A stretch of 12,306 nt of DNA, from assembly GCA_044869275.1 (NCBI GenBank), contig JBIOXB010000169.1, forward strand, positions 1-12,306, in the 5' to 3' direction. A model generated the notes under the pieces. That model had not been told where the DNA came from and did not search any database. It was given only the letters and a program-made list of their open reading frames with translations. Position numbers and translations under genes: made by a program. The stretch is from a bacterium. Lineage in GTDB: Bacteria; Zhuqueibacterota; Zhuqueibacteria; Zhuqueibacterales; Zhuqueibacteraceae. This document shows positions 2,657 through 12,181 of this stretch, one piece after another (within the stretch, counting starts at the first letter, position 1; every line of letters begins with the position of its first letter).

Positions 2657-3187
2657 TCAGGTGAGGTTTTGATCTTGCCGCGCCAGCGTTTCATAATCCG
2701 GCCGGTCGGCGATGGTTTGGTGCCGGAACGCGCGCACAATTTCGCCGCGGTGCAGCAGAAAAACCCCGGGCATTTGCAGGACGTTTCCCATGGGCCGGCC
2801 GCCTCTGTTCTTGTTCGCCCGAACGTTTTCCCATCCCCGTTTCCAAACCTTGGGGCGGAGGAAATGCAGCGGACTCGCCACGCGCAATTCAAAGGCGCGA
2901 TACAATTCCCGTTTGGGATCGCTCACGCGCGGCAGGTCTTGCAGGCCATAGCGCGCGAAAAGCGATTCCGATCTTTCCTGCTGCCCTTGATGGACAAACG
3001 CCAACTGCGTTCCGCTCGCGGCTATGGCTTGGCGCTGGTCCGCAACATCGGCCAAAGTCTCGCGGCAAAACGTTCAGCCGAAATGGCGCAGAAAGATCAG
3101 CAGCACGGGCGTGCGATTTGACAAATGGAGCAAGCTGTCGCCCTGCTGGGTCCTGGCCTGCACCAGTTTTTTTTCAAAGTCGTTCAA
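2657..3187 (-). CDS. AhpC/TSA-like (AhpC-TSA_2, SelL/SelU-related) redoxin, probable selenoprotein with UxxC motif, about 176 aa
   Basis: ORF 2657-3055 continues upstream in frame through one TGA (3076-3074): (M)NDFEKKLVQARTQQGDSLLHLSNRTPVLLIFLRHFG-U-TFCRETLADV. The family motif is FLRHxGCxxCRE. Downstream family motifs VSDPKRELYRAF, QMPGVF and DRPDY are present. Proposed TTG start at 3187 follows a GGGA RBS that overlaps the sigma gene stop. Confidence 0.85.
3028..3057 (-). promoter_or_regulatory. Candidate bacterial SECIS hairpin for the AhpC-like gene
   Basis: Starting 18 nt after the UGA, the minus strand reads UUGG-CCG-AUGUUG-CGG-A-CCAG, a stem with a bulged A. An alternative outer pairing is UUGGC/GCCAA. 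Folded by eye only. Confidence 0.45.
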
Positions 3188-3191
3188 GAGA

Positions 3192-4073
3192 TCATCCCAA
3201 ATACTGCCGCAAGGGCTGTTGCCGGAATTGCAGGCGCATGCGCGCCAGCGCTTTTTCGCGAATTTGCCGCACGCGCTCGCGGGTCAAACGATAACGATTG
3301 CCGACTTCCTGCAGCGAGAGAGGTTGATCATCCTCCAAGCCGAAACACAGCTTCAGAATCTCCGCCTCCCTGGGATTGAGCGTCTCCAAAGCGTGGCGCA
3401 AGTCCAGGCGCAGCGATTCCTGCATCAACTCTTGATCAGGTGAATCGTACCCGTCGCTCATGAGCGTATCCATGACGCGGTAGCCTTCCATGTTGGGCAT
3501 GGGCTGTTCCAGTGACACGGGGTGCGCGCCATCTTTGAGAAGCTGCATCACCTCGAGCTCGGACAGCTTTATCAGCGCAGCCACTTCCTTCATCGCCGGC
3601 GGGCGGCCCTGGTGTTCCTCCAGGTTTTGCACGATGCGGGTCAGCCGGTTGAGCGCATTGATACGATTCAGCGGCAGGCGTACGATGCGATGATGCTCGG
3701 AAATCCCCTGCAAAATCGCCTGGCGGATCCACCACACGGCGTATGAAATGAATTTGAACCCCTTGGTTTCGTCGAAGCGCTCGGCCGCCTTCAACAAACC
3801 GGCATTGCCTTCGCTGATCAAATCCTCCAGTGGCAAGCCCCTGCCCTGGTATCTTTTCGCAATGCTGATCACGAAGCGCAAATTGGCGCAGATCAAGCCG
3901 TTTAGCGCCTCCTGATCGCCGCTTTTGAAGCGCCGCACCAAATCCACTTCCTTTTGCGCAGAAATCGGGAGGCAGTTTTCCAGATCCTCCAGGTATCTTC
4001 TGACCACTGGCATGCTGCTCTCCGTGTTTTTCTGGCGCCTACTGGGTGCAGAGATGCTGCGCGCTTTTTTCAT
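3192..4073 (-). CDS. RNA polymerase sigma-70 factor, short RpoD/SigA family lacking region 1.1
   Basis: 293 aa. Region 1.2 RRYLEDL; region 2 ANLRFVISIAKRYQGRGLPLEDLISEGNAGLLKAAERFDETKGFKFISYAVWWIRQAI; region 3 IVRLP...PVSLEQP; region 4 LTRERVRQIREKAL. RBS AGGAGG lies upstream of the ATG. Confidence 0.96.
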   Translation of the reverse strand: MKKARSISAPSRRQKNTESSMPVVRRYLEDLENCLPISAQKEVDLVRRFKSGDQEALNGLICANLRFVISIAKRYQGRGLPLEDLISEGNAGLLKAAERFDETKGFKFISYAVWWIRQAILQGISEHHRIVRLPLNRINALNRLTRIVQNLEEHQGRPPAMKEVAALIKLSELEVMQLLKDGAHPVSLEQPMPNMEGYRVMDTLMSDGYDSPDQELMQESLRLDLRHALETLNPREAEILKLCFGLEDDQPLSLQEVGNRYRLTRERVRQIREKALARMRLQFRQQPLRQYLG

Positions 4074-4210
4074 AGCAACCTCCTATTCATCGCCGCAGAA
4101 AAGCCGGAAAGACACTTGTACGACTTTCCTGATATGAAAGCTGTTGTTGTCTCAAAAATGACTATATAAATTTAAAGCATTATCTGTCTGACTAAATATT
4201 GTTGCGAATT

Positions 4211-4238
4211 AATATAGAAATAAAATGATCATAGTCAA
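4211..4238 (-). promoter_or_regulatory. Putative sigma-70 promoter for the sigma-redoxin operon
   Basis: Minus-strand TTGACT (4238-4233), 16-bp spacer, TATATT (4216-4211), in an AT-rich intergenic region. Confidence 0.55.
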
Positions 4239-4246
4239 GCATCTTC

Positions 4247-4275
4247 TTGACAAATGGTCAACAAAAATATATATT
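4247..4275 (+). promoter_or_regulatory. Putative sigma-70 promoter for the CarH-like gene, overlapped by candidate CarH operator repeats
   Basis: TTGACA (4247-4252), 17-bp spacer, TATATT (4270-4275). TTGACA and TCAACA (4258-4263) are TnnACA cores exactly 11 bp apart. Confidence 0.65.
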
Positions 4276-4280
4276 GTTAA

Positions 4281-5237
4281 ATGCAAATGGACGCTAAGTC
4301 GAAATTTCCCATTAGAGTGGTTGCTCAAAGAACCGGCTTGAACGTTCACATTATTCGCATCTGGGAACGCAGGTACGGCGCAGTTTCACCTGCGCGCACG
4401 CCGACAAAACGCCGTCTTTACACGCAAACGGACGTGGACCGTCTCATTCTGCTGCGCCGTGCGGTTGCTGCCGGTCACAGCATTGGACAAATCGCGCGCA
4501 TGACCGACGAGCAAATCCTTGAGGTTTTGAGCGACCCTCACAGTACGGTTGCACTGAATGCAACGGCGGCGCACCTTGTGCTGGCGGCAGAAAATGAAAC
4601 GGACCTGGCGCAATCCCATCTCCAGGCCTGTTTGCATGAAATCCAAAATTTTAATAGTGATGGATTGGATGCGGCTTTGGCGCGCGCCTCGGTGGTGCTC
4701 AGCCAGCCGGTCTTAATCGACCGGGTGATCGTGCCGTTGATGGATCAGATCGGAGAGTTGTGGTGCCAGGGAAAATTCCGCATCGTGCAAGAGCGGCTCG
4801 CGTCCACGATCGTGCGCACTTTTTTGGGCGGGCTGAAAAACTCCCATCAACTGCCGGCCTCGGCCCCGCGCATTTTGGTGACGACGCCGCAAGGACAGTA
4901 TCACGAATTGGGCGCGCTGATGGCAGCGGTCACCGCCGGCACGCAGGGATGGCATGTAACCTATCTTGGCCCCGGTTTGCCGGCGGAAGAAATCGCCGCC
5001 GGAGCGATGCAAAACAATGCGCGCGCGGTCGCGCTCAGCATTATCTATCCGGCGGACGACCCCATGCTGGAGCAGGAGCTGCGTAAATTGCGGCGCCTGC
5101 TGGCTCTTGATACCGTTCTCATCGTCGGCGGGCGAGCCGCCGGCCACTATGCCGCGGTCCTGGCCGAAACCGGCGTGATGCGCATGGATAGTGTCGCCGC
5201 CTTCCGGGCTCAGCTTGAAGCCATCCGGCTTGGGTGA
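4281..5237 (+). CDS. carH: CarH/LitR-family MerR transcriptional regulator with B12-binding domains
   Basis: N-terminal MerR HTH with RIWERRYG and RRLY. Four-helix bundle GELWCQGKFRIVQERLAS. Rossmann B12 domain with QYHELG, GWHVTYLGPGLP, VALS and IVGG. The start is ATG 4281 or 4287. Confidence 0.92.
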   Translation: MQMDAKSKFPIRVVAQRTGLNVHIIRIWERRYGAVSPARTPTKRRLYTQTDVDRLILLRRAVAAGHSIGQIARMTDEQILEVLSDPHSTVALNATAAHLVLAAENETDLAQSHLQACLHEIQNFNSDGLDAALARASVVLSQPVLIDRVIVPLMDQIGELWCQGKFRIVQERLASTIVRTFLGGLKNSHQLPASAPRILVTTPQGQYHELGALMAAVTAGTQGWHVTYLGPGLPAEEIAAGAMQNNARAVALSIIYPADDPMLEQELRKLRRLLALDTVLIVGGRAAGHYAAVLAETGVMRMDSVAAFRAQLEAIRLG

Positions 5238-5250
5238 GTTCATCAGCGGC

Positions 5251-5368
5251 CAGACTGTGTGAAAACTTGAGAATGCCGCACCCTGAGCTTGTCGAAGGGT
5301 GCCAAGTTCAAGAATCCGGCTTCGACAAGCTCAGCCGGCGTTGAAACCAAGCGCTTTCACACAGTCTG
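5251..5368. mobile_element. MITE copy 2 (118 bp)
   Basis: Perfect 14-bp TIRs CAGACTGTGTGAAA / TTTCACACAGTCTG. Perfect internal 15-bp IR CTGAGCTTGTCGAAG (5283-5297) / CTTCGACAAGCTCAG (5320-5334). Flanked by direct repeat GGC (5248-5250, 5369-5371). Confidence 0.88.
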
Positions 5369-5425
5369 GGCATTCTGATATGGCGAGTTGCATCCCCTCA
5401 TCACCTTATATGGACAGGGAGACCA

Positions 5426-5773
5426 ATGGCAAGAGTCGATTGGTATTACCACCGCCCCAGCTGAGACACCTGCGCCAAAACGCAAGAGTTTCTTGCGCAG
5501 CACAACATCGAACCGGCGGAAAAGACCAGCACCAAAAAAGCCAGCTATCCCAAAAAACAAGTGCTCGCACTGCTGCAAGGCATCGATGAAATCTACGCCA
5601 CCAAAGGCAGAGCCGTCGTTCATGTGAATCTCAAAAAAGACAAACCGGACGAGGCGGCGTTATTTGAATTGCTCATCGGACGAACCGGCAATTTGCGTTC
5701 GCCCGCTTTGCGCCTCGGGCGCAAGCTGGTGGTGGGATTTGACGAAGCCACCTACCAGAAGGTTTTTGCTTGA
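5426..5773 (+). CDS. ArsC/Spx-like thioredoxin-fold protein, probable selenoprotein with UxxC motif, 115 aa
   Basis: ATG 5426 follows RBS AGGGAG. It reads MARVDWYYHRPS-U(TGA 5462-5464)-DTCAKTQEFL... in frame with ORF 5561-5773, which carries GRTGNLRSPALRLGRKLVVGFDEATY. The N-terminus matches the ArsC-family YHxPxCxTCxK motif. Confidence 0.88.
5481..5497 (+). promoter_or_regulatory. Candidate bacterial SECIS hairpin for the ArsC-like gene
   Basis: Perfect stem CGCAAGA-GTT-TCTTGCG starts 16 nt after the UGA. The apical loop begins with G, 23 nt after the UGA, which fits bacterial SECIS geometry. Confidence 0.65.
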
Positions 5774-5791
5774 TGCGAAGCGGAGGAAAGG

Positions 5792-6685
5792 ATGAAAATC
5801 TTAATCAGCGGTTCTACCGGCTTGATCGGCACGGTGCTGATCAAATCGCTCTTGGGGCAAGGCCATCAAGTGGCACGCTTGGTGCGCACGCCGGGAAAAT
5901 ACAGCGAGCCCGTCGTGCTGTGGAATCCCGAGGCCGGCACATTGAATCCTGCGGCGTGTGAAGGTTATGACGCAGTGGTTCATCTTGCAGGTGAGAATAT
6001 CGCAAAGAGATGGTCGGCCGCACAGAAAGCCAAGATCAGAAACAGCCGCGTGCAGGGCACAACTTTGCTCAGCTCAACGCTGGCGAAATTGAGCAAGCCC
6101 GCGCACGTGCTGGTGAGCGCTTCGGCGATCGGCTACTATGGCGATCGCGGCGGCGAAATGTTGCGCGAAGACAGCAAGCCGGGCACCGGTTTTCTCGCCG
6201 AAACTAGCGTGGCTTGGGAAAAATCCGCGGAACCGGCAGCACAAGCAGGAATACGCGTTGTGCATCCTCGCCTGGGCGTGGTGTTGACGCCTCGAGGCGG
6301 CGCACTGCAGAAAATGTTGCTGCCATTCAAGCTCGGCTTGGGCGGAGTCATGGGCAATGGCGAGCAATACTGGAGCTGGGTCACGCTGGACGACGTCATC
6401 GGCGCGATGCAGCATTGCCTGCAAAGCGAAGGCTTGCGCGGGCCGGTGAATGTCGTCGCGCCGCATGCCGTGACCAATCGCGAATTCACGAAGGCGCTCG
6501 GACGGGCTTTATCCCGGCCCACGATTTTTCCGGTGCCGGCTTTTGCCGCGCGCCTGGTGTTGGGAGAAATGGCGGATGACCTGCTGCTTTCCAGCGCGCG
6601 TATCGAGCCGACACAATTGATTGCCAGCGGGTATAAATTTCGTCATACGGAACTAGAAGCTGCGTTGCGGGCATTGTTGAAGTAG
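5792..6685 (+). CDS. TIGR01777 family NAD-dependent oxidoreductase/epimerase (YfcH-like, C-terminal DUF1731)
   Basis: MKILISGSTGLIG Rossmann motif, VVHLAGENI, SASAIGYYG, FKLGLGG, YWSWVTLDD, GPVNVVAP, RPTIFPVPAF. RBS GGAGGA lies upstream. Confidence 0.95.
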   Translation: MKILISGSTGLIGTVLIKSLLGQGHQVARLVRTPGKYSEPVVLWNPEAGTLNPAACEGYDAVVHLAGENIAKRWSAAQKAKIRNSRVQGTTLLSSTLAKLSKPAHVLVSASAIGYYGDRGGEMLREDSKPGTGFLAETSVAWEKSAEPAAQAGIRVVHPRLGVVLTPRGGALQKMLLPFKLGLGGVMGNGEQYWSWVTLDDVIGAMQHCLQSEGLRGPVNVVAPHAVTNREFTKALGRALSRPTIFPVPAFAARLVLGEMADDLLLSSARIEPTQLIASGYKFRHTELEAALRALLK

Positions 6686-6978: not shown

Positions 6979-8088
6979 TCACCTCATTCTAAAAGCCTCA
7001 ACAAGCGGTTTGGCGGCTTTCGGTTGCGCGGCGCAATAATCTTCGCCCAGCGCGGCGGCTACCGTTGCGGCGATTTGGCTTTGCGTGTGCAGGCCGGAGT
7101 TCATGCGCTCACCAAGCGCCGGTGTATCTGGCCCAATGAGGGCGATCCAAATGTTGTCCGCGCCTTTGATCTTCGCACCGTGATCCTTCCATTCCTGCAG
7201 TCCATAACCTCGGCCATGATCCGCGACAACGATGAGTGTGGTTTTGTCGCGATATTGTGAAATGGATTGCAATGTTTCCCACAGTGTTTTGAGAAAATTA
7301 TCCGTGCGCCGGGCAGCGTCAAGATAGTGATCGTATCGTCCGGCGTGCGCGAATTCGTCGGTTTCTCCGAACGTCATCCAGAATACGCGCGGTTGATTTG
7401 CCTTGAGGTATTCGAGCGCCGAGTAGAAGGTGATCGCATCGTACGGCTCCTCGCCCCAGGGGTGGAACAGCTCGGCCTTCAAACGATTGAGCAGCGCTTG
7501 CTCTGCGGAAATCTCGCCCACGGTGACCGGCTCGATGCCGCCATTGACGTAAAAGCCGCAGCGCTCGCGATTGATAATCCACGGCACCACCTGCCACGCG
7601 CCAAACGCCGCGACTTTGCCTTTGAAATTTTTCTTTTGGTGGAGCCATTCAAACACACTCACATTGGGGTTGGGCCGTTTGTCGTTGCTGTTGATGGCGG
7701 TGTCGGCATAGCCCACAATCATCTCACTGTAGCCGGGATATGAAAAATGAAACCCATTGGTCACCTTCACCAGGCTATTTTTATTTTGATTACCAAAGAG
7801 CTGGCCTTGTTTGGCGACAACGCGCCATAAAAATGGCGTCAAAACCTCGCGTCGCGCTTCGAGGTTATCACGCCAATAAGCTTGCTTGAGCGCGGCCCCA
7901 TTCTCGCCGCCGCCATTTTCTTTGTTCATCAGCGCAGAATCAGCGCCGGTGAAAACTTCCTGCCAACGCAGGCCATCGACCAGAATCAGCATGACGTTTT
8001 CAGTGCGAAGCTTGGCGGGCGATTGTCCCGCCGCCTTGCAACAACCCAGCAGTATAAAGCACAGAGTGAAGATTCTTGATGTTTTCAT
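6979..8088 (-). CDS. Secreted alkaline-phosphatase-superfamily protein (phosphoglyceromutase/AP-like)
   Basis: Signal peptide; NVMLILVDGLRWQEVF, FSYPGYSE, GETDEFAHAGRYD, TTLIVVADHGRG, WKDHG, QIAATVA. RBS GAGGAG lies upstream. Confidence 0.9.
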   Translation of the reverse strand: MKTSRIFTLCFILLGCCKAAGQSPAKLRTENVMLILVDGLRWQEVFTGADSALMNKENGGGENGAALKQAYWRDNLEARREVLTPFLWRVVAKQGQLFGNQNKNSLVKVTNGFHFSYPGYSEMIVGYADTAINSNDKRPNPNVSVFEWLHQKKNFKGKVAAFGAWQVVPWIINRERCGFYVNGGIEPVTVGEISAEQALLNRLKAELFHPWGEEPYDAITFYSALEYLKANQPRVFWMTFGETDEFAHAGRYDHYLDAARRTDNFLKTLWETLQSISQYRDKTTLIVVADHGRGYGLQEWKDHGAKIKGADNIWIALIGPDTPALGERMNSGLHTQSQIAATVAAALGEDYCAAQPKAAKPLVEAFRMR

Positions 8089-8106
8089 AGCGCCGAATGG
8101 CTCCTC

Positions 8107-9465
8107 TCAATATTGATCGTCCCGTGCAAAGGTATTTTCCCTGTACATCCATTTGCCCCGCGTGAAATCGGAAAACTCCACCGACTCGCCGCCCAATTGA
8201 ATCGAAGCCTCGGATAGCGGCGTAATCGCGCTCCAGGCAACAGCATCGTACACATCCAGCGGTGTGTTGACTTTGCGTTTGATTGCTTCAATGAACGCAT
8301 GCAAGACGAAAAAATCCATGCCGCCATGTCCTGCGGTCTTGGCATCCTCCCCAAAGCGCTTCCACAGCGGATGGTCGTATTGCTCGAGATACGGCTTGGC
8401 CTCTTCCCAACGATGCGCTTCTTTGCTCACGCCTTCGAGGTACAACGATTTGTTCAGGTCCATCCACAAGCCCTTGGTCCCTTGCACTCGGAAGCCCAAT
8501 GAGTACGGACGCGGCAAACTGGTATCGTGTTGCAGCAAGACCGTTTCTTCGTTGTTGGTCTTGATCATGGTGGTGACGACGTCGCCGAGCTTGAATTTGA
8601 TTTTGGCATTGGGATGATCCGCGCCGCCGTTCTTGACGAGGTATTCGTGCAGCCCGCGTGCTTTGGAGGCATACGAGCAGAGCGAGACAAAACGATTGCC
8701 GCGATTGATGTCGAGCATCATCGCCACCGGCCCGAGGCCGTGCGTGGGATAAAGATCGCCGTTGCGCATAATCGAATGCTGCGTGCGCCATTGCGCTTCG
8801 GAAAAGCCTTTTTCGCCAAACTCCACGCCCCCGCCGTAGGGCTGTTTGCCATCGTTGAATTTTACTGCGCGCAAATCGTGCTGATAGCCGGCCTGCAAAT
8901 GCACCAACTCCCCGAACATGCCCTGGCGCACCATGTTGAGAATCGCCATCACATCGCGACGATAGCAGACGTTCTCCAGCATCATCAGCGGCATGCCGGT
9001 GCGCTCCGAGGTACCCACCAAATCCCAACACTCTGCGATCGTCGCGCCGGCAATCACTTCGCAACCGACGTATTTCTTGGCATTCATCGCATCGAGGCTC
9101 ATCACTGAATGCCATTCCCAGGGCGTCGCGATGATGACACCGTCAATGTCTTTCATCTCCAGCAATTTTCGGTAATCATACGGCCCCTCTTTGATGACTC
9201 GCGGGTTGGGCTTGCCAGATTTTTTGATGAGGTCCATGCTGGCGTCGATCATCACCTGCTGCACGTCGCAGATCGCGACCACTTCGACGTCGTCGCGGCG
9301 CAAAGCAAGCTCGAGATGATTCTGTCCACGCAGTCCGACACCGATGAGGCCAAGCCGGACTTTTGGGGTTTTGGTGTCGGGGAAGACGAGGCGGGAGGGA
9401 AGAATCGTGAGGCCCGTGCCGGCGAGGGCAGTGGTTTTGATGAAATCGCGACGCGAGGTGTTCAT
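8107..9465 (-). CDS. Tat-exported Gfo/Idh/MocA oxidoreductase, GH109 alpha-N-acetylgalactosaminidase-like
   Basis: Start moved to ATG 9465 after RBS GAGGAGGA. Tat signal MNTSRRDFIK. Motifs GLIGVGLRG, IATPWEWH, MMLENVCY, NGDLYPTHGLGP, RPYS, GHGGMDF. Confidence 0.93.
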   Translation of the reverse strand: MNTSRRDFIKTTALAGTGLTILPSRLVFPDTKTPKVRLGLIGVGLRGQNHLELALRRDDVEVVAICDVQQVMIDASMDLIKKSGKPNPRVIKEGPYDYRKLLEMKDIDGVIIATPWEWHSVMSLDAMNAKKYVGCEVIAGATIAECWDLVGTSERTGMPLMMLENVCYRRDVMAILNMVRQGMFGELVHLQAGYQHDLRAVKFNDGKQPYGGGVEFGEKGFSEAQWRTQHSIMRNGDLYPTHGLGPVAMMLDINRGNRFVSLCSYASKARGLHEYLVKNGGADHPNAKIKFKLGDVVTTMIKTNNEETVLLQHDTSLPRPYSLGFRVQGTKGLWMDLNKSLYLEGVSKEAHRWEEAKPYLEQYDHPLWKRFGEDAKTAGHGGMDFFVLHAFIEAIKRKVNTPLDVYDAVAWSAITPLSEASIQLGGESVEFSDFTRGKWMYRENTFARDDQY

Positions 9466-10758: not shown

Positions 10759-12123
10759 TTATTTGCGAAAGTAATGACGCCGGCGCGCCCAAACGAAAGT
10801 CGTGCGATTTTCTGTTCCTAAATCCTGCAAAGCATCTGCGTAAATCTTCAGACCATATAATGCTGCGCAAGCTTTGGGAGCTAAGACGGAAGTGCTTGCC
10901 GGTAGTTTACCCTCGGCCAAATGTCGCGCACACAAGGCTTGGTCGATTAAATCACCTTCGCCGCTCGTCAGTTTAAGATGTGGAAAATTCTTTTTCAAAT
11001 TGTCGGCGCATTGCGCGAGCGCCTGCGGATGCGAGATCAAAGTATCGACTTCGCCAAAATCTGCACGCGGATGCAACAACAGGCAGTGGCCGATCACCAC
11101 CTCAAAAATCTCCAAAATCTCGCAGTCGAATTTGCTCAGGGCGTGAATGGTTTCCATCACCACGCCGCCGCGCGCGTTCTGAATGGCAAAAACGCCGAAG
11201 TCAATTTTGCCCTGGTGCAGCGCGGCCAGCACATGGTCCGAAGTGTAAAGATATTCCACCCGATATGCGGGGATTTGCGCGGCATGCTGCGCACAGTAAT
11301 GGCGGCACGCCTCTTCATTGAAGCTGCCCTGGCCGCCTTGAATGCCGATCACGAATTCGTGCGGCGAAATGCGCTCGGGCAGCAGCGCGCTGTACACTCG
11401 ATCGAGAGCTTCTTCCAAGCGCAGCCGCATCTCGCCGGTGTAGGGATTATAATTCTGCAGGTTGTAAAACAATTCCCAGGTATCGTTGCAGGTTTGCGCG
11501 ATCACCGACAACAGCAGCTCGAAGCCCTTCGTGTCGATGGAGGTTGGCGACAGTCTCATTTCCTGCAGCACGCGCCCGAGATAGTGGGTCACGCCCTGGC
11601 TGTTTGCGGCGAGCCGGTCATGTTCCTGGGGCGAGATTTCCACGACGCGCAAGCCCAAGCCGGTGAAATAGGAAAGCCACGCGCGATAGCCCGAGGAAAC
11701 GGAACGCAACGGCCACATCACCAGCGGCAATCCGGCCAAACCATGCGCGGCGCTGTCCGGCCCAAACATGGGATGCGTGGCGATGAGCTCGAGGGTGGCA
11801 TGCGCGCCCAGATGCTGGGCTAAAATCTCAGCGGGATATGCTTTGACCGAACAGACGTCAAGGATAGTGGTATGCGGTTTCAAATACGGCTTCAGACTGG
11901 CAACGCACGCTTCGAATTGATTGATGGGCACGCACAAAAAAATCGCCTCGGCCTGCGCACAGACTTCGGGCAACGATTTGAACGCTATGCCGATTTCCGC
12001 AGCCACCTTTGCCAGCTCGGGATTTCTGTCCGTGGCGAGAATCGTGTGATCGCGGCACAGAGTCTTCGCCCAGAACTGGCCGAAGCGGCCGAAGCCGATA
12101 ACGCCGGCGGTTTGTCGTTGCAT
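10759..12123 (-). CDS. Prephenate/arogenate dehydrogenase fused to a prephenate dehydratase domain (TyrA-PheA-like, no ACT domain)
   Basis: N-terminal half has GVIGFGRFG, DVCSVK, HPMFGP and EHDRLAANSQGVTH. C-terminal half has IGIQGGQGSFNEEA, FAIQNARGGVV, SHPQALAQC and LQDLGTENRTTF. ATG at 12123. Confidence 0.9.
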   Translation of the reverse strand: MQRQTAGVIGFGRFGQFWAKTLCRDHTILATDRNPELAKVAAEIGIAFKSLPEVCAQAEAIFLCVPINQFEACVASLKPYLKPHTTILDVCSVKAYPAEILAQHLGAHATLELIATHPMFGPDSAAHGLAGLPLVMWPLRSVSSGYRAWLSYFTGLGLRVVEISPQEHDRLAANSQGVTHYLGRVLQEMRLSPTSIDTKGFELLLSVIAQTCNDTWELFYNLQNYNPYTGEMRLRLEEALDRVYSALLPERISPHEFVIGIQGGQGSFNEEACRHYCAQHAAQIPAYRVEYLYTSDHVLAALHQGKIDFGVFAIQNARGGVVMETIHALSKFDCEILEIFEVVIGHCLLLHPRADFGEVDTLISHPQALAQCADNLKKNFPHLKLTSGEGDLIDQALCARHLAEGKLPASTSVLAPKACAALYGLKIYADALQDLGTENRTTFVWARRRHYFRK

Positions 12124-12181
12124 AAAAAAATTGCCGGTAATATTGCTGCGCCAGCCTTTCTGTCCTTGCCGGTGCGCCAAA

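Follow-up and report, generated by a model that had tools for sequence, protein, structure and literature searches.

A CarH-like regulator with an altered Wx9EH motif beside predicted selenoprotein genes in an apparently reduced photoprotection locus of the Zhuqueibacterota

The stretch of DNA analyzed here (the window, 12,306 nucleotides) is contig C169 (JBIOXB010000169.1) of a 6.67-Mb genome (G000; GCA_044869275.1), 94% complete, from the bacterial phylum Zhuqueibacterota. It carries a gene for a CarH-like, B12-domain regulator (carH) on the forward strand and, facing away from it, a sigma-70 gene on the reverse strand. Open reading frame (ORF), Pfam, and NCBIfam checks located all five genes and both UGA-x-x-Cys motifs of the locus as an earlier note on this DNA had described them: a SelL-related redox gene follows the sigma gene, an arsC-type redox gene follows carH, each with an in-frame UGA that would encode selenocysteine (Sec), and a TIGR01777 oxidoreductase gene ends the right arm (319.7 bits against a cutoff of 207). 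The divergent arrangement over back-to-back σ70-type promoters was confirmed by Pfam and a promoter scan, the forward promoter reading TTGACA-17-TATATT (11 of 12 consensus positions) and the reverse one TTGACT-16-TATATT (10 of 12); between positions 1800 and 7000 there are eight σ70-type sites, against a shuffled mean of 2.5. Coordinates are given in Table 1.

The regulator, a protein of 318 aa, consists of a MerR winged helix (PF13411) with the RxWERRY motif (RIWERRY), a four-helix bundle (PF02607), and a Rossmann-type B12 domain (PF02310) in which the lower axial ligand, His208, is present. Its closest matches in both sequence and fold are to Thermus thermophilus CarH, and its AlphaFold2 model (pLDDT 86.8) matches structures 5C8F and 5C8D. 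With T. thermophilus CarH, a class I LitR (PDB 5C8D/5C8E/5C8F and 3WHP), it shares the three domains, the lower histidine, the Trp and Glu of the cap, and TnnACA repeats phased at 11 bp over the −35 box. It differs in having Arg at the position of His142 and Cys at that of His132, two repeats rather than three or four, and outputs that are Sec redoxins, a TIGR01777 protein, and a sigma factor rather than crt genes; its lineage also has Gln for the Glu two residues before the lower histidine. H208 is invariant in 37 aligned sequences, and the Asp or Glu that precedes the lower histidine is replaced by Gln in the window protein and in all 37 aligned relatives.

In relatives, one or both of the divergent promoters have TTGACA-N5-TAGACA across the −35 box, giving two TnnACA repeats in 11-bp phase that match the published consensus. 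An operator matrix was derived from 25 pattern-selected sites from 14 loci, which score 17.0–30.6 bits in-sample; when loci were held out, at least 25 bits were reached in eight of nine, the carH of the ninth having an internal stop. The carH-side operator of the window scores 8.3 bits with both TnnACA cores kept, and the sigma side scores −16.7 bits and keeps no TnnACA repeat. Against the three or four repeats expected for CarH, there are thus two on the carH side and none on the sigma side; relatives mostly have two. The −35 boxes of the two promoters are 8 bp apart, compared with 24–220 bp in relatives. A genome-wide scan with the matrix gave no convincing second site (the best, 20.8 bits, is near an ATPase gene on contig C99) and no site before the photolyase operon on contig C86. 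The carH gene looks leaderless across the order, with its ATG 5–7 nt past the −10 box in all 16 loci examined (window 4270–4283).

Downstream of carH, the arsC UGA reads RPS-U-DTC in a 115-aa frame that scores 130.4 bits with NF041106 (cutoff 85), a family listed among predicted selenoprotein families (PMC13188914; for this and every other paper cited by PMC number, statements refer to the accessible part of the text). All 16 matches in 41 genomes have exactly one in-frame TGA. The hairpin behind the UGA agrees with the consensus selenocysteine insertion sequence (SECIS) of PMC13188914 on all four points, and its stem is paired in 66 of 66 cells of an alignment of 11 homologs, from the 16 loci, with one compensatory change. 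That covariation is weak alone, a single compensatory pair being reached by 58 of 500 shuffles, and unconstrained folding z-scores for the region are unremarkable. The TIGR01777 gene directly follows arsC(Sec) in 11 of the 12 other family genomes that have arsC, and in the twelfth the contig ends. As the earlier note had anticipated, standard annotation truncates both UGA genes of the contig: the protein database holds them only as post-UGA calls of 70 and 132 aa (P0126 and P0227). The view that both behave as selenoprotein genes is supported, and gene order indicates that carH-arsC(Sec)-TIGR01777 is a conserved unit.

In our preferred reading, to which we give slightly less than an even chance, a variant CarH, still working like CarH at its own promoter, governs arsC(Sec) and TIGR01777, and the sigma-SelL arm is for the most part uncoupled from it. 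The Wx9ER protein likely still binds cobalamin, presumably through His208; its oligomer would bind the two TnnACA repeats over the −35 box, probably repressing its own promoter and thereby controlling the genes downstream, and would be released once light and oxygen have removed the adenosyl ligand. Transcription from the leaderless carH promoter would read through a 118-bp repeat into arsC, Sec would be inserted at both UGAs, and the redoxins may use thiol/selenol redox chemistry to counter photo-oxidative or oxidative damage. With its own operator lost, the sigma-SelL arm is likely constitutive or only indirectly affected, and the sigma factor is probably auxiliary on housekeeping-type promoters, not the head of a dedicated cascade.

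Several observations weigh against this reading. Studied CarH proteins are described as having an absolutely conserved, defining Wx9EH motif (PMC8156234, PMC9304148), which is also part of the signature in PMC11796333; the regulator instead has W161-x9-E171-R172, the Arg codon being CGG in the window and in a second sample (X2). In the best 119 of 1059 homologs, W161 and E171 are kept without exception and His stands at the R172 position in 116, as it does in 24 of 24 other loci from the Genome Taxonomy Database (GTDB). The residue next to the Trp, a His that is the light-state upper ligand in many CarH proteins though not universally, is Cys162; in T. thermophilus, His132 matters for tetramer dissociation (PMC10442372, PMC4557120), and an H132A mutant is largely unable to dissociate (PMC10442372). 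The 8.3 bits of the carH-side operator resemble sites (at most 7.7 bits) where arsC no longer adjoins carH. A 99% complete congener has no carH match and carries the same compressed promoter (38 of 43 nt) directly before arsC. A further genus has four genomes in which arsC(Sec) and carH are not linked, and no operator was found in the three of them that were scored. The join of carH and arsC spans the repeat, which has 90 copies, and is bridged by no Logan contig among those listed. For the Sec reading of the two UGA genes, variants in strain X3 are uninformative or unfavorable: the very few sites give no hint of purifying selection on SelL (one of five codons synonymous) or on arsC (two of five), at low depth and among 40 of 58 rows listed.

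Because the regulator departs from Wx9EH, light sensing cannot be assumed for the candidate B12/light-sensing regulon of the earlier note; the window protein, the only one scored with NF052513, reaches 123.9 bits against a cutoff of 400. Private decay or a sequencing error was considered as the source of R172 and rejected, since the Arg codon is two base changes from a His codon, recurs in X2, and is common to three relatives. Those three Arg exceptions are all among the four closest relatives of the regulator. With it they form a five-member clade that is monophyletic (Shimodaira–Hasegawa-like support of 100 in FastTree; 64–76% identity) and in which every member has Cys at the His132 position (W-C); one member has E-H, and because that member is nested inside the clade, R and H at position 172 may be interchangeable. 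The residue at the His132 position varies among the 119 homologs (H 68, R 27, Q 13, C 5, K 4, E 1), including those with intact clusters, so that Cys162 alone proves little. Each of the four clade relatives is paired with an ArsC homolog of shared source and equal longest contig (26275, 2049, 28570, and 2171 nt), and on the two contigs of about 2 kb the two genes would be neighbors; these metadata suggest that in the W-C clade carH is always next to arsC(Sec). The regulator thus likely still controls the arsC selenoprotein, possibly no longer as an ordinary light sensor.

A stronger departure is possible, though we consider it doubtful: the W-C/E-R clade would be blind to light, bind another form of cobalamin, and answer oxidants or B12 status, its output pared to selenium redoxins. 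Cys162 might then ligate cobalt from the upper side, and Arg172 would remodel the adenosyl pocket. Both upper-pocket histidines are changed in four of the five clade members, and the change has been kept over about 30% divergence; carotenoid genes have been lost and redox genes retained; the window DNA is found in soil and subsurface metagenomes; and oxygen is already an input that CarH integrates at this ligand position (PMC10442372). The variability of the His132 position speaks against such a conversion, as Cys occurs with an intact EH elsewhere (G124, P0020, P0004) and may be neutral. Regulator variants with other inputs exist (PMC9758184): Myxococcus CarA and the class II–V LitR proteins (PMC9304148, PMC9758184) are a precedent for CarH relatives that lack the adenosyl-cap motif or B12 binding. 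CarA lacks the Trp, keeps EH, and needs the CarS antirepressor, whereas the window protein keeps W and E and has changed H; class II LitR uses a short light-oxygen-voltage protein, and no such partner turned up here, where no specific search was made. In its fullest form, which we likewise think questionable, a CarH converted to a cobalamin-based redox or B12-status sensor would gate, through one compressed operator, a selenoenzyme operon and an auxiliary RpoD-type sigma factor.

Matches to carH occur in 24 of 167 genomes of the phylum, and in relatives the neighbors of carH are crtB, crtI, crtD, TspO, DPRP, class II photolyase, DUF523/DUF1722, and bcp peroxiredoxin genes. Adjacency of carH and arsC(Sec) is found in 3 of 14 carH genomes of the order, all of one genus; five genomes have arsC(Sec) facing DUF523 and other cluster genes with no carH beside it, and in four it is unlinked. 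The intact cluster of G005 has TIGR01777, arsC(Sec), carH, and sigma in the same order and orientation as the window; it differs in having Wx9EH, full operators at both promoters, and, behind sigma, tspO, crtD, crtI, crtB, DUF523, photolyase, and idi, with no SelL there. A tblastn search of the window genome found no crtB, crtI, tspO, or DPRP, and its contig C86 (about 69300–76000, L065) carries a crtD fragment and a crtW-like fragment followed by intact DUF523, class II photolyase, and idi genes. This remnant operon further contains what we take to be a DUF547-like gene, a glycosyltransferase gene, and a radical-SAM-like fragment joined to the crt fragments. From these gene neighborhoods, the locus is best explained as a reduced descendant of a lineage-wide CarH photoprotection cluster; the selenium-based redox defense, which the earlier note took for the local output, would be the remainder of an ordinary carotenoid/photolyase cluster and not a replacement design.

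Such losses could also mean that carH itself is a relaxing relic heading for loss, with both promoters effectively constitutive and the selenoproteins ordinary housekeeping redoxins left behind, an account that we judge unlikely. Seven of 18 family genomes have no carH match; among them are G001 (99% complete) and G004 (100%), where arsC-TIGR01777 still lies next to DUF523 and further genes of the cluster. The decayed operator and the crtD and crtW-like fragments on C86 fit this account, as do in-frame stops in the sigma gene of G002 and the carH of G110 and the departure of the regulator at 8 of 93 highly conserved columns, where 91 of 120 sequences depart at four or fewer. Weighing on the other side, the database calls of the clade show no internal break (one, P0037, is a partial of 236 aa, and another, P0005, is aberrant at its N terminus), the DNA-binding helix and the B12 motifs survive at 64–76% identity, and two phased TnnACA repeats remain.

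The sigma factor of the left arm is RpoD-like: region 3 is present in its 293 aa, which sets it apart from extracytoplasmic function (ECF) factors with regions 2 and 4 only. Nor does it behave as the primary RpoD, a slowly evolving ortholog across genomes; that role fits a gene on contig C200, to whose product it is 54% identical as an extra, long-branch paralog. The conserved primary sigma is matched in 28 of 29 genomes of the order, most of which have a second paralog. Because its regions 2.4 and 4.2 are nearly identical to those of the primary sigma, no distinct promoter specificity is predicted; of the RpoD-type sigma cascade proposed in the earlier note, the RpoD-like character stands and the word dedicated is unsupported. 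Of the 23 other carH genomes of the phylum, nine of them seen with 1.5-kb flanks only, eight have a non-ECF sigma gene on the divergent arm, and trees neither recovered nor rejected a grouping of the window sigma with other carH-linked sigmas (p-AU 0.41 and 0.28). In G005 and G017 a short second sigma-like ORF with region 2 only comes right after the carH-linked sigma (L007:7166-7534, L010:11109-11432).

The UGA of the SelL-related gene reads RHFG-U-TFC in a 175-aa frame scoring 154.8 bits with NF040769 (cutoff 120). Cys occupies the Sec position in 78 of 80 GTDB loci, retrieved with a query that carried Cys, the other two having been mis-parsed by the pattern. A direct pattern scan of metagenomes found at least 120 UGA-form stretches with RHFG-UGA-TFCR; of the 120, 118 match SelL, 100 of them across more than 120 aligned aa. 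A nonsense mutation as the origin of this UGA was rejected, since at least 120 metagenome stretches share the motif and the closest UGA form in that scan is 57% identical compared with 51% for the closest Cys form among the homologs retrieved. The candidate SECIS folds at −7.4 to −10 kcal/mol under constraint and is not the unconstrained minimum free energy fold; set against the consensus (16–37 nt past the UGA), a hairpin is present, and its loop G position and energy are borderline. Among the 41 genomes, SelL exceeds the NF040769 cutoff only in that of the window, and G011 has a weak remnant after sigma (41 aa, E 3e-6). In other phyla SelL relatives sometimes lie within photo-response clusters: neighbors include DPRP at 4, photolyase at 3, CarH-like genes at 2, and a cluster-type FAD oxidoreductase at 28 of 120 redundant UGA-form loci, and CarH-like genes at 3 and photolyase at 3 of the 80 GTDB loci. 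A different helix-turn-helix/B12-domain regulator, with Wx9ER and no lower His, is encoded at L149:1271-2158 and in L213. Flanked by a DPRP gene and a SelL gene of the UGA form, it is an independent instance of E-R within a photolyase cluster.

These data bear on the larger proposal of the earlier note, an intact light/B12 switch governing both arms as a conserved regulon with a dedicated sigma cascade and two selenoproteins, which we now hold to be very unlikely. With −35 boxes 8 bp apart, one bound oligomer could cover both promoters; strains from two further studies also have the junction of sigma and SelL bridged; G011 has its SelL remnant; and 10 of 14 sigma differences in strain X3 are synonymous. 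Against it stand the lost operator on the sigma side, the restriction of SelL above cutoff to 1 of 41 genomes, sigma recognition motifs that match the primary sigma, contigs carrying the two closest SelL relatives (75–77%) whose sizes are unlike those of the listed carH matches, and sigma trees that neither recover nor reject orthology to the other carH-linked sigmas. Synteny, then, extends to carH-arsC(Sec)-TIGR01777 and, in part, to a divergent non-ECF sigma, and not to SelL. Comparison of the loci supports neither conservation of the sigma-SelL arm nor its control by CarH, which in our preferred reading would affect that arm at most indirectly, because its −35 box lies 8 bp from that of carH.

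The assembly contains selA, selB, and tRNA-Sec. Sec machinery is reported for KSB1 (PMC9012183), which is probably the lineage of this genome, as a 63%-identical ArsC homolog bearing that name suggests. A search of it found no selD, which is present in 16 of 18 family genomes. True loss, suspected when selD was missing after a selB-linked ORF on C86, was rejected because purC is missing too and a 13.7-kb contig, from the likely source run and at depth 11 (window contigs 11.6–12.5), is collinear with the purC-selD region of the congener; the selD of the window organism appears to be unbinned, if this contig is rightly assigned to it. Two further UGA genes in the genome, C4:8353 (+) and C208:42254 (−), have GUU-loop hairpins like the ArsC SECIS; we take them to encode an AhpD-like and a SelW-like CxxU protein, respectively, and to be probable selenoprotein genes. 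On the B12 side, the genome has a PduO adenosyltransferase, a cobalamin riboswitch, two methylmalonyl-CoA mutase-family genes, and a photolyase, and no CobA-type adenosyltransferase was found in it with TIGR00708. Because PduO, the riboswitch, and the two mutase genes are present, this gene content indicates that the genome can supply adenosylcobalamin; the 777-aa ORF behind the riboswitch is probably an uptake receptor.

Both Sec families and CarH clusters are already known, and both window proteins, with their UxxC motifs, pass the curated cutoffs of NF041106 and NF040769; no published report was found that places these families in a CarH/photolyase cluster. The earlier view that no described system resembles this one therefore stands for the combination and not for its catalogued selenoprotein families: no paper was found that links CarH with selenoproteins, LitR/CarH with an RpoD-like or group 2 sigma, or TIGR01777 with light and photolyase, in literature whose coverage was thin for subscription journals and supplements, and the E-R variant of CarH was not met in it, no search having been made by that name. 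Streptomyces LitR-LitS (PMC11519972) likewise pairs a B12 MerR regulator with a sigma gene; LitS is ECF-type, whereas the window sigma has regions 2, 3, and 4 and its control by the regulator is only putative. Wx9EH is the rule by which a B12 domain is called a photoreceptor, and a Wx9ER clade with a nested EH member offers a ready test of it and of how CarH, an optogenetic tool, controls cobalt-carbon chemistry. The presence of two predicted, functionally uncharacterized selenoprotein families among photoprotection genes provides a functional lead hidden by gene-caller truncation. If conversion to redox or B12-status sensing were true, the locus would be a natural example of a B12 photoreceptor whose input has changed, and regulation would tie B12 directly to selenium redox chemistry; if the protein is a normal CarH or a relic, it would be a modest lineage-specific rearrangement.

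Table 1. Features of the carH locus, in window coordinates
Feature	Position	Strand	Remarks
SelL-related peroxiredoxin-like redox protein, U-T-F-C motif	2657..3187	-	NF040769 and PF13911; TTG start inferred, 4 nt past sigma stop
In-frame UGA, predicted Sec, SelL-related gene	3074..3076	-	Cys at aligned position in 78/80 GTDB homologs
Candidate SECIS, SelL-related gene	3036..3054	-	Bulged 7-bp stem; fit to consensus borderline
Fast-evolving RpoD-like sigma-70 paralog, 293 aa	3192..4073	-	Pfam regions 2, 3, 4; neither ECF nor primary sigma
Predicted promoter, sigma-SelL arm	4211..4238	-	-35 TTGACT, -10 TATATT; operator repeat absent, -16.7 bits
Weakened CarH-type operator, predicted	4243..4264	+	Two TnnACA repeats, 11-bp phase, over carH -35; 8.3 bits
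Predicted carH promoter	4247..4275	+	ATG 5 nt past -10 box, leaderless-type spacing
CarH-like regulator	4281..5237	+	MerR_1, B12-binding_2, B12-binding
CarH-like key residues	W161 4761, C162 4764, E171 4791, R172 4794, lower-ligand H208 4902	+	
MITE-like (miniature inverted-repeat transposable element) 118-bp repeat, 14-bp terminal inverted repeats	5251..5368	.	Second copy 2086-2204
ArsC-family (seleno)protein, U-D-T-C motif	5426..5773	+	UGA 5462-5464; NF041106
SECIS hairpin, arsC(Sec)	5481..5497	+	7-bp stem, GUU loop, 23 nt past UGA, -8.5 kcal/mol
TIGR01777 family oxidoreductase, epimerase and DUF1731	5792..6685	+	Pfam, NCBIfam

The 118-bp repeat between carH and arsC has about 90 near-full copies on 66 contigs, often within another palindrome of the repetitive extragenic palindromic (REP) type, and was not found in the loci retrieved from relatives. 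It folds stably and has no U-tract on the sense strand. Rfam gave no match in the window. REP-like palindromes lie at both contig ends (51–146 and 12233–12300) and probably cause the assembly breaks. A 545-aa protein encoded at 191–1828 (−) has no Pfam or NCBIfam match; its ESM Atlas look-alikes (0.97–0.98) are hypothetical clusters, and DUF4900 (0.77, 16% of members) is a weak lead. Unrelated to the cluster, a GH109-type oxidoreductase with a twin-arginine translocation signal and then a phosphodiesterase/sulfatase-like gene occupy 6979–9465 (−), and 10759–12150 (−) encodes a 463-aa fusion of prephenate dehydrogenase and prephenate dehydratase domains.

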